Source of the DNA: an uncultured virus (IMG/VR IMGVR_UViG_3300025371_000001)
Lineage: Adnaviria; Zilligvirae; Taleaviricota; Tokiviricetes; Ligamenvirales; Lipothrixviridae
Strand: one strand, 5' to 3'
Virus record (IMG/VR): IMGVR_UViG_3300025371_000001
Length of the DNA: 64,000 nucleotides
Shown: piece after piece, positions 39,111-39,828 of the stretch
Layout of the letters: the number at the start of each line of letters is the position of its first letter
How positions within the stretch are numbered: the first letter of the stretch is position 1
Notes under the pieces: generated by a model
Database searches by the model: none
What the model was told of the DNA's origin: nothing
What the model saw: only the letters and a program-made list of their open reading frames with translations
Made by a program: the position numbers and the translations under genes

Positions 39111-39323
39111 TAAAACTATACGTGAACTTAGCAGTTCAGTTCTAATTAACGTCTCTATCTTTCCTCACTTCATACTCTTTTTCTATATACCTCTTCGAAC
39201 TTCTCTCCTTCTTTTTCTCTCCTTCTTCTCGTTTCATCAGTACGAAATTAAAACTACGTCATTCAGTACGGAGTAAAATTTAAATTCCAGAACATGTAAA
39301 GTGTAATAAACTACCCCGAATGT

Positions 39324-39551
39324 TGCACACAAGCAATCCGTATATTCAATAATCCTTATAATGCACACAAGCAATTAAAAACTTCAATAATACATGAGAT
39401 GCACACAAGCAATTCGCTCTTTCAATAGAAAAATGTCTGCACATAAGCAAAGTGGGGGTTCGATAAAATCTAATTTGCACACAAGCAACAAAGATTCTCA
39501 ATAACGCGGTTATTGCATATAAGCAGTCATAAGGTTCAATAATATCTTCTT
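39324..39551 (+). repeat. TIGR-like dual-spacer array, six 38-nt units
   Basis: TGCA(C/T)A(C/T)AAGCA + 9 nt variable + (T/C)TC(A/G)ATA(A/G) + 9 nt variable, starting at 39324, 39362, 39400, 39438, 39476, 39514; AAAATTTAAAT promoter-like motif at ~39275. Confidence 0.85.
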
Positions 39552-39828
39552 TACACCAAAACAATTATTTATGACTACGTCCTTCCATAGAAAACTTTTT
39601 AAACCCCCCTTCTAATTAGTAGAAGAGGTGGATAAAAATAGAAACAATAAAAGAAAAATTTGATATTATAGATGAGGATATCAGAGAGTTATTAGACCTA
39701 ATACATAACATAAAAATTGATTATATGACGGGAAAAAATGATAAAGGAAAAATTGATAAAGCATTGTTTTTAGTACAAAAAATTCAAGCAGAAATATACG
39801 GGCTAACTCATTAATAAGTGGGATCCGT

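Follow-up and report, generated by a model that had tools for sequence, protein, structure and literature searches.

Which protein, if any, reads the guides of a virus-borne guide array that has no effector gene beside it? The question is raised by a 64,000-nucleotide (nt) stretch of DNA from an uncultured virus (IMG/VR record IMGVR_UViG_3300025371_000001; hereafter the window, meaning the whole stretch analysed), in which six 38-nt units, each with two 9-nt variable segments, stand in tandem at 39324–39551 on the plus strand. An earlier note on this DNA had read the units as a bipartite-guide array resembling TIGR arrays (for tandem interspaced guide RNA), which guide Nop-domain Tas proteins, and had proposed that it was an orphan or divergent array served by a distant effector, a new effector or host box C/D proteins. 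We find that it is a genuine TIGR guide-RNA array of the subtype carried by Acidianus tailed spindle virus (ATSV), and we consider it probable (roughly 60%) that it is a stand-alone cassette of TIGR guide RNAs (tigRNAs) served by a Tas protein made elsewhere, either outside the window or by a co-infecting virus.

By sequence parsing, the period is exactly 38 nt throughout the array (unit starts at 39324, 39362, 39400, 39438, 39476 and 39514, with the last unit ending at 39551), so that the earlier count of six 38-nt units stands, as do its six pairs of A and B spacers and its TATA-like motif ahead of the array (AAAATTTAAATT, 39275–39286). The units had also been called exact, which holds for their period and not for their repeats: these are near-identical, with 0, 0, 1, 1, 0 and 2 substitutions in the successive units at 18 family-conserved positions (the variants being loop TTCAATAG in unit 3, loop TTCGATAA in unit 4 and edge TGCATATAAGCA followed by G in unit 6), and after them, at 39552, comes a seventh edge in degenerate form (TACACCAAAACA). 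A profile of 1,002 unique related units is conserved at positions 1–13 (TGCACAYAAGCAA, the edge repeat) and 23–29 (TCAATAA, the loop repeat) and variable at positions 14–22 (spacer A) and 30–38 (spacer B), and the true register is 13 + 9 + 7 + 9. The earlier 12 + 9 + 8 + 9 parse had the order of edge, A, loop and B right and the boundaries one base off; its first A base therefore belongs to the edge repeat, and its first loop base is variable.

The edge pattern occurs in the array five times exactly and once with one mismatch, and a single other site in the window (57460) has 0–1 mismatches; at up to two mismatches, the window holds 12 sites compared with 7.2 expected by chance, so the signal resides in six copies in perfect 38-nt phase and not in copy count. 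Tandem Repeats Finder also sees the period of 38, with only 2.4–2.7 copies, because half of every unit varies. Measured against published TIGR arrays, the two spacers of ~9 nt fit, the repeats of 13 and 7 nt fall slightly outside the quoted range of 8–12 nt, and the six tandem units compare with a most common count of 5–15. The edge repeat starts with UG and ends with GCAA, and the loop repeat starts with UC and ends with UAA, compared with published boxes of UG (box D) and CCA (box C); because the conserved repeat positions are invariant, they offer no covariation for box pairing. The dual repeats, the 9 + 9 spacers and the sharing of repeats with the ATSV array thus uphold the TIGR-like assignment, and the 38-nt unit and its termini do differ from the published 36-nt form; the earlier note had given the unit as 38 nt and its repeat motifs as apparently different.

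The array type itself is not new. In ATSV (GenBank KU645528), the repeat region at 9232–10146 has the same repeat consensus, the same 38-nt period and ~24 units, and begins 4 nt past the stop codon of the gene ATSV_B343; the array had been thought possibly divergent, a view that does not survive this identity with an array already in print. The TIGR–Tas discovery paper (Faure et al. 2025, PMC12045711) credits the ATSV paper (Hochstein et al. 2016, its reference 39) with having sighted such an array before, in a virus of archaea, and neither Acidianus, spindle nor the ATSV accessions occur in four of its supplementary files. A pattern scan for the same architecture recovered 12 IMG/VR loci and at least 136 metagenome stretches, with 0 matches in 185,579 species-representative genomes; after removal of duplicates, 110 related arrays with at least three edge repeats remained, from viral and metagenomic loci of hot springs (contigs and loci are given below by L numbers). 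A B343 homologue (72–89% identity) lies on the same strand beside the array in ATSV and in 11 of the 12 IMG/VR loci, and the twelfth array lies 95 nt from its contig end.

Two classes of array emerged. Those abutting tas are leaderless, with 6–49 units starting 4–87 nt past the gene or, in a single array, 333 nt past it; the others, to which the window array belongs, have 3–15 units, a conserved leader and a trailer with a run of five Ts. Among the 14 leadered arrays, tas follows within ~50 nt in two (L066 and L113), and the remainder have no tas in the available flank. For the 34 arrays whose flanks reach 400 nt or more on each side, tas was immediately upstream in 18, immediately downstream in 1, 1.5–4 kb away in 3 and not in the locus in 12; given these satellite arrays and tas-less loci, distance from tas is normal for the family. 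The window and ATSV also share the placement of ThyX a few kilobases downstream of the array (ThyX genes 92% identical). A second ATSV region, the ‘possible viral CRISPR locus’ at 11703–11992 (L002; CRISPR, short palindromic repeats that are clustered and regularly interspaced), was considered as a homologue of the window array and rejected as being of a different repeat type (GGAAGAACTRAAA-type repeats with 45–60-nt spacers, directly upstream of B256 and ThyX).

The relatives also identify the effector. ATSV_B343 (343 amino acids (aa)) has no significant Pfam domain beyond zinc-ribbon hints. A profile of eight of its homologues retrieved 209 relatives at E ≤ 1 × 10−3, and Pfam Transposase_20 was found in 13 of 30 relatives scanned (6 above the gathering cut-off). 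An 86-sequence family profile (A2) matched TasR (9mty_A) at E = 5.9 × 10−51, TasH at E = 2 × 10−31 and IS621/ISCro4 at E ≈ 10−6, and the B343-only profile matched the same TasR chain at E = 0.005. An AlphaFold2 model built on the 86-sequence alignment had a predicted local distance difference test score of 94.8 (61.5 for an earlier model from 8 close homologues), with TasR, TasH and then IS621 as its top Foldseek matches, and the NCBIfam model TIGR_Tas_endo matched B343 at E = 7.6 × 10−13 (48.9 bits, under the equivalog cut-off of 100). The predicted architecture comprises a long N-terminal helix, two zinc ribbons and a Nop/IS110-type RNA-binding domain. Judged by profile and modelled fold, ATSV_B343 is a Tas protein of the Nop/IS110 type, and the new effector that had been one earlier suggestion gives way to the normal effector of relatives, a Tas protein of the ATSV_B343 family. 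RuvC and HNH domains were not detected in B343 by Pfam, by the secondary structure of the model or by the extent of the TasR alignment, although no dedicated search was made; as neither domain was detected, we regard the protein as probably TasA-like.

No such gene was found in the window. A tblastn search with ATSV_B343 gave no match, two Tas profiles (B343 and broad) gave best E values of 0.96 and 0.67 against 896 six-frame stop-to-stop open reading frames (ORFs), and Pfam found neither a Nop nor a Transposase_20 domain among 87 window ORFs, in keeping with the earlier note, which had recognised no Nop-domain gene there. What stands in its place can be seen by comparison with contig L066, which is collinear with window positions 30986–39606 (92.2% identity over 8,707 nt) through the ribbon–helix–helix (RHH) and glycosyltransferase genes, the leader, a 6–7-unit array and the trailer. 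Homology stops at 39606/39607. Past this breakpoint, L066 has tas ~50 nt after the trailer (residues 1–251, with 80% identity to B343, before the contig ends), whereas the window, L064, L067 and L052 have a small ORF related to ATSV_B45, an ATPase gene and ThyX. L113/L110 resemble L066 in having the leadered cassette upstream of tas. Tas-less contigs of the window type and tas-bearing contigs occur together in three metagenome series as defined by contig-name prefix: Ga0080005 (L064 with L059), Ga0209061 (L052 with L068) and OGCG01 (L067 with L077).

The cassette that ends at this breakpoint is bounded by conserved non-coding sequence. Its distal leader (39111–39274, plus strand) is a C/T-rich block ending in GTTTCATCAGTACGAAATTAAAAC; the leader is 88–93% identical in six loci (L037, L066, L067, L065, L077 and L052; blastn), and positions 39119–39254, with the GTTTCATCAGTACGAAATTAAAAC block, match an intergenic stretch of Sulfolobus monocaudavirus 1 (SMV1; HG322870, 11897–12032; L001) that has no array. 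The core leader (39275–39323, plus strand; alignment and blastn), with the TATA-like box ~40 nt before the first repeat, is kept in five aligned cassettes, and its 47–49 nt recur by themselves in L084, L101, L036 and L069; from its sequence, it is presumed to be the archaeal promoter of the array. The trailer (39552–39607, plus strand; alignment and blastn) consists of the degenerate terminal edge, a conserved sequence and a run of five Ts at 39596–39600 that is presumed to be an archaeal-type terminator; a scan for bacterial-type (hairpin) terminators found none at the trailer.

Reads from run X1, the probable source run, add to this picture. Leader depth was 2.7–4.4 times that of its flanks, three further contigs of like depth have the leader and first repeat followed by other spacers, and alternative continuations start right past 39608–39610, an 18-nt motif from one of these post-trailer continuations occurring in none of 194 loci. 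Either several cassettes on one replicon or coexisting variants explain these continuations.

The window repeats are not decayed: they carry 0.67 substitutions per unit at conserved positions, where 296 tas-adjacent units carry 0.64. Not one of the window's six units is found again in the set of 1,002 unique units, the closest (in L039) differing by 1 nt, and L066, L037, L064 and L067 have flanks that are 85–100% identical and spacers that are almost wholly different. The four tas-less contigs of the window lineage (6, 7–8, 15–16 and 2 units) likewise differ almost wholly in their spacers, which points to turnover of spacers in contigs without tas, or to whole cassettes being exchanged there repeatedly. 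Window units 1 and 2 have A halves that are found again in L067 and L066, there joined to unrelated B halves. Across the 1,002 units, 311 pairs share A and differ in B, 123 of them with unrelated B (Hamming distance ≥5), compared with a chance total of ~32 A-sharing pairs, and 186 pairs share B, 20 of them with unrelated A (chance total ~3.5). Such re-use of half-guides suggests that units recombine at the loop repeat or are acquired by halves. The state of the repeats, the changing spacers and the read depths are signs of a cassette in use, though they speak of presence and not of expression.

Targets were sought for the 1,002 unique guides in ~568 kb of array-masked related DNA, with 30 permuted A/B pairings as the control. 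The sole enriched geometry was unit positions 14–21 directly followed, with no gap, by the reverse complement of B (4 exact 17-mers, compared with a control mean of 0.13 and maximum of 1; 14 sites compared with 4.6 when up to one mismatch in B was allowed), and nine other geometries, including the reverse order and gaps of 1–4, gave 0–1 exact sites and no enrichment. This sequence-derived 8 + 9 rule agrees with published accounts in which the two spacers pair with adjoining DNA, A on one strand and B on the other (PMC12045711), and spacer A tolerates a mismatch at its first base (PMC13421893). The clearest site lies in a gene resembling transcription factor B (TFB) on the tas-bearing contig L005 and is matched by guides from L009, L051, L047 and L045; a one-mismatch site lies at ATSV 15852, within the span of the methyltransferase gene ATSV_F298.

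Guide arrays of the two kinds also meet in host-type loci. At L076:901–938, a host-type CRISPR spacer is a complete 38-nt TIGR unit; the CRISPR repeat there ends in GATAGAATTGAAAG, and its repeat-end motif ATTGAAAG is counted 49 times on the strand that the unit lies on. In L029 (unit ~1725, minus strand), a TIGR-derived spacer stands between CTTTCAATTCCTTTGAGGATGAAAC-type CRISPR repeats. These are first hints that host-type CRISPR arrays of hot springs take spacers from TIGR arrays.

Because tas is not encoded in the window, a Tas protein for this array must come from elsewhere, and we propose the following course, by analogy with characterised dual-repeat systems where the window itself is silent. 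The TATA-like box of the leader would start transcription ~15–20 nt before the first repeat, and the T run of the trailer would end it. The edge repeats would be cut internally, as their homology with characterised systems suggests, to yield 38-nt tigRNAs, which a dimer of a B343-family Tas protein supplied in trans would bind. The guides would then pair with both strands of an adjoining site of ~17 bp, one strand taking 8 nt of A and the other 9 nt of B, and the outcome would be binding or repression, not cleavage, most likely against competing viruses. What is shown is the array, its family, that family's link to tas, the lack of tas in the window and the conserved cassette; transcription, processing, a Tas supplied in trans and what would happen at the target are inferred. 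In published dual-repeat systems, Tas is needed for processing (PMC12045711; PMC13421893), so an array without any Tas would be silent, and both TasA and dead TasR repress transcription (10.64898/2026.09.09.750476).

Several observations weigh against this proposal. The earlier note had suggested a search for adjoining targets of A and the reverse complement of B, and for the six window guides it came back empty: no site at ≤1 mismatch in the ~568 kb of related DNA and none at ≤2 mismatches of 17 in the window itself, and exact 17-mer matches in IMG/VR (1, 23, 6, 0, 2 and 22 for the six guides; 54 in total) are at chance level: every one lies in an unrelated contig, and tblastx links none of these to array-bearing viruses. 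The sites behind the family-level target rule are few, two of the four exact ones being A/T-rich with one common B spacer and one overlapping a spacer of a host CRISPR array by only 14 of its 17 nt. The repeat termini (UG...GCAA and UC...UAA) mismatch the published UG...CCA boxes, and the lack of a nuclease domain in B343 is judged by Pfam, the modelled secondary structure and the reach of the TasR alignment. As no tas gene was seen, a Tas supplied in trans is assumed; the window covers only part of its replicon, and the absence of tas is a sequence-profile result that a very divergent Nop fold may escape.

The genes around the cassette bear on what else might serve it. Upstream lies the gene for a 213-aa RHH protein (38469–39110, plus strand; Pfam, PHROGs and NCBIfam), with an aCcr1/CopG-like N terminus (aCcr1 cell-cycle regulator family in NCBIfam at E = 1.2 × 10−7, below the cut-off), which is also upstream of the array in L066 and L037 and absent from ATSV-type loci. 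Downstream is the small conserved ORF of ~58 codons (39638–39814, plus strand), related to ATSV_B45 (tblastn, 39% identity, E = 1 × 10−3), the gene directly upstream of tas in ATSV; a B45 homologue also lies beside tas in ATSV, L007 and L027. The small ORF is 85–92% identical in L064, L067 and L052, with changes mostly at third positions. None of the four contigs gives it an ATG, GTG or TTG start; a GGTG motif is followed 7 nt later by an in-frame ATA, in the position that the tas ATG holds in L066 behind the same motif. From this arrangement, ATA is its probable start codon. Next comes a gene for a 286-aa ABC-type ATPase (39829–40689, plus strand; AAA_15/AAA_21; Pfam, PADLOC and synteny), weakly AriA/PtuA/AbiLi-like in PADLOC, which occupies the slot of the L066 tas gene and is followed by ThyX. 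It has no homologue in ATSV or the 12 IMG/VR array loci, and no relative of it was confirmed in IMG/VR; ATSV_B256, which precedes ThyX in ATSV, was considered as its counterpart and rejected as unrelated. The ATPase gene is a neighbour of the array, and nothing links its action to the array. The linkage of the array to the RHH and ATPase genes, which had been put forward for checking, thus holds within the window lineage, where RHH lies upstream in that lineage's contigs only and the ATPase downstream in its tas-less variants only, and not in ATSV-type loci, from which both are absent.

A 291-aa protein encoded elsewhere in the window (ORF291; 61153–62028, minus strand) has homologues that adjoin TIGR arrays in six other loci, those in L036, L101 and L067 being divergent from the core leader of the array. 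It has no match in Pfam, PHROGs, Atlas or the Protein Data Bank, none of its 32 homologues is named, and it is not Tas-like.

The main rival to service by a Tas protein made elsewhere is that the array is a recent, still-intact remnant, the inert leftover of a TIGR–Tas locus in which tas was lately replaced by the small ORF and the ATPase. Such a history would fit L066, where tas follows the same trailer by ~50 nt in a sequence 92.2% identical over 8,707 nt with homology ending at 39606/39607, and it would fit a 64-kb window with no detected tas and guides with no detected targets. An inert leftover is, however, at odds with repeats as well kept as those of tas-adjacent arrays, with the conservation of both leader and trailer, and with the turnover of spacers or exchange of whole cassettes among the four tas-less contigs, and the satellite arrays at 1.5–4 kb and the 12 of 34 loci without tas make separation from the gene a poor sign of decay; we regard this history as unlikely, if still deserving of attention. 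In a different direction, the guides of the tas-less element might load into, or soak up, the Tas protein of a co-infecting virus, acting as pirates or decoys. Because the window shares its repeat consensus with tas-linked arrays, a foreign Tas should accept its guides; contigs with and without tas come from the same metagenome series; guides of the family match genes of related viruses (the TFB-like gene of L005 and, with one mismatch, the ATSV methyltransferase region); and mini-CRISPR arrays in Sulfolobales viruses offer a precedent (PMC6858448). Yet the window guides have no target, the rest of the replicon may encode tas, and the idea is a special case of supply in trans, with the same mechanism, so that piracy in the strict sense seems quite improbable here. 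A broader version, in which viruses of hot springs keep two kinds of array, long ones fused to tas and short, promoter-bearing portable cassettes, the latter kept and renewed by elements that lost tas or never had it so as to program the Tas proteins of co-infecting viruses, is doubtful, and we offer it as speculation.

Other proteins could in principle use the array: the B45-like protein with the ATPase, the ORF291 family or the TnpB-like proteins of the window. The small ORF and ATPase follow the trailer in four contigs, B45 homologues lie beside tas in ATSV, L007 and L027, and ORF291 homologues adjoin arrays in six loci. However, those four contigs form one lineage, so their linkage amounts to one observation, and the ATPase and ORF291 are unlike Tas or Nop proteins; for the ATPase, neither ATSV nor any of the 12 IMG/VR array loci yielded a homologue. 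The RNA that TnpB proteins use is their own and adjoins them, and no TnpB lies near the array. We therefore hold a nearby effector of this sort to be very unlikely. Hardly credible at all are two explanations outside TIGR systems, namely that the units are iterons or operators, or that they guide a host box C/D small ribonucleoprotein. Short phased repeats beside a gene for an RHH regulator would suit iterons, which nevertheless are not expected to be hypervariable between near-identical genomes, and the RHH gene is missing from ATSV-type array loci; the evolutionary relationship of Nop-domain systems to box C/D ribonucleoproteins (PMC12045711) would suit the host proteins that the earlier note had in mind, a suggestion that finds no support, for want of C/D boxes and of any Rfam match at E ≤ 1 on either strand of the 1.1-kb region at 38900–40000. 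Against both explanations, homologous arrays abut a Tas gene.

The rest of the window places the array in an element of its own. The G+C content is 33–42%, no tRNA gene was found in the window, and its proteins include PHROG families of unknown function as well as ThyX, dCTP deaminase, glycosyltransferases, ParA/ParB pairs and a DNA methylase. Three full-length TnpB genes (4547–6127, minus strand; 8357–9655; and 55022–56392) are accompanied by a gene for a truncated TnpB-like protein of 284 aa (44488–45342), whose Pfam match is to the Cas12f1-like TNB zinc-ribbon domain only, and an IS607-like element (serine resolvase and TnpB; 7762–9652) encodes protein 87–95% identical to ATSV_D194/E429. 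ThyX of the window has 88% DNA identity to that of ATSV. Because overlap with ATSV at the protein level is limited to the IS607-like element, the array and ThyX, the window represents a different Sulfolobales virus-like element and not a strain of ATSV.

Three further kinds of repeat or structured element were seen in the window. A repeat of 120–230 bp resembling a miniature inverted-repeat transposable element (MITE) has at least nine copies (4375–4514, 6362–6482, 13393–13597, 22674–22794, 30742–30895, 35497–35656, 56679–56825, 57752–57899 and 61023–61153) and is also found in L066, L067, L052 and L065; a separate stretch, 28221–28462, matches an SMV1 feature annotated MITE-SMN2. A perfect 45-nt tandem repeat at 2601–2768 (3.7 copies; Tandem Repeats Finder score 336) lies partly inside a 120-aa ORF at 2598–2960 on the minus strand. 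A G+C-rich element of ~215 nt at 63685–63898, behind a TATA-like AAAATTTATAAA box, is a candidate structured non-coding RNA: its G+C-rich part (63715–63905, 191 nt) has a stable predicted fold (−75.2 kcal/mol, z = −3.8), and Rfam gave no significant match for the region. At L064:399–612, a copy that is 96% identical is joined directly to a loop repeat with which an array starts.

As both the array type and the effector family are already known, this locus is not a new kind of system. What appears to be unpublished is the class of tas-less leadered cassettes, the presence or absence of tas at one breakpoint and the 8 + 9 target rule. Tas-less arrays would not be listed in published catalogues, which were built around tas loci; the word ‘orphan’ is absent from the main texts of PMC12045711 and 10.64898/2026.09.09.750476 (the Faure supplements were checked for ATSV names only), and a literature search combining ‘TIGR array’ with ‘orphan’ returned nothing but one unrelated paper. 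The locus therefore offers a case on which the idea of TIGR arrays that act in trans or are orphans can be tested, arrays that tas-first catalogues miss, and bears on the natural targets of TIGR–Tas systems, the gain of spacers and the separability of guide and effector. Viral backbones that are almost the same, some having tas and some lacking it at one breakpoint, with a conserved cassette and differing spacers, make a natural comparison; the rule of A followed by the reverse complement of B, at 8 + 9 nt, gives the ATSV subtype a target rule derived from data; and there are first hints that TIGR guides match genes of related viruses and that host CRISPR takes spacers from TIGR arrays. Were piracy true, it would be a case of RNA-guide piracy in virus–virus conflict and the first TIGR array to work without an effector in cis; were the array inert, it would still be a clean example of the loss of an effector from a known system.

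Set beside other guide systems, the window array shares with box C/D small RNAs and IS110 bridge RNAs the principle of bipartite guides bound by Nop-type domains (PMC12045711). It differs from the former in that the array region has no Rfam box C/D match and nothing supports C/D boxes or kink-turns, and from the latter in that there is no IS110 transposase and the units stand in tandem. Like the mini-CRISPR and orphan CRISPR arrays of viruses, it is a short guide array on a virus without effector genes (PMC6858448); those virus-borne arrays use host Cas proteins and are thought to act in virus–virus conflict (PMC6858448), whereas the repeats and effector family here are different and the putative supplier is not the host, being either a second virus or a stretch of the genome that lies outside the window. 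The closest likeness is to TIGR–Tas systems as described in the published account (PMC12045711), with two alternating short repeats, two 9-nt spacers per unit, multiple units, a Nop/IS110-type Tas beside homologous arrays and, to judge by family-level statistics on a few sites, probably opposite-strand pairing of tandem spacers. Differences from the published systems, so far as that account covers them, are the unit of 38 nt in place of 36 nt, the ends UG...GCAA and UC...UAA in place of UG...CCA, and a copy that has no tas in 64 kb and has its own conserved leader and trailer. Within the subtype, the ATSV array has 24 units right after the tas stop codon and no leader, whereas the window has 6 units, a leader and a trailer, and no tas. 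The cassettes of L066 and L113/L110 are like that of the window in leader, trailer, repeat consensus and size (6–7 units), and they part from it beyond the trailer, where they have tas within ~50 nt of the trailer and the window has the small ORF and the ATPase instead.

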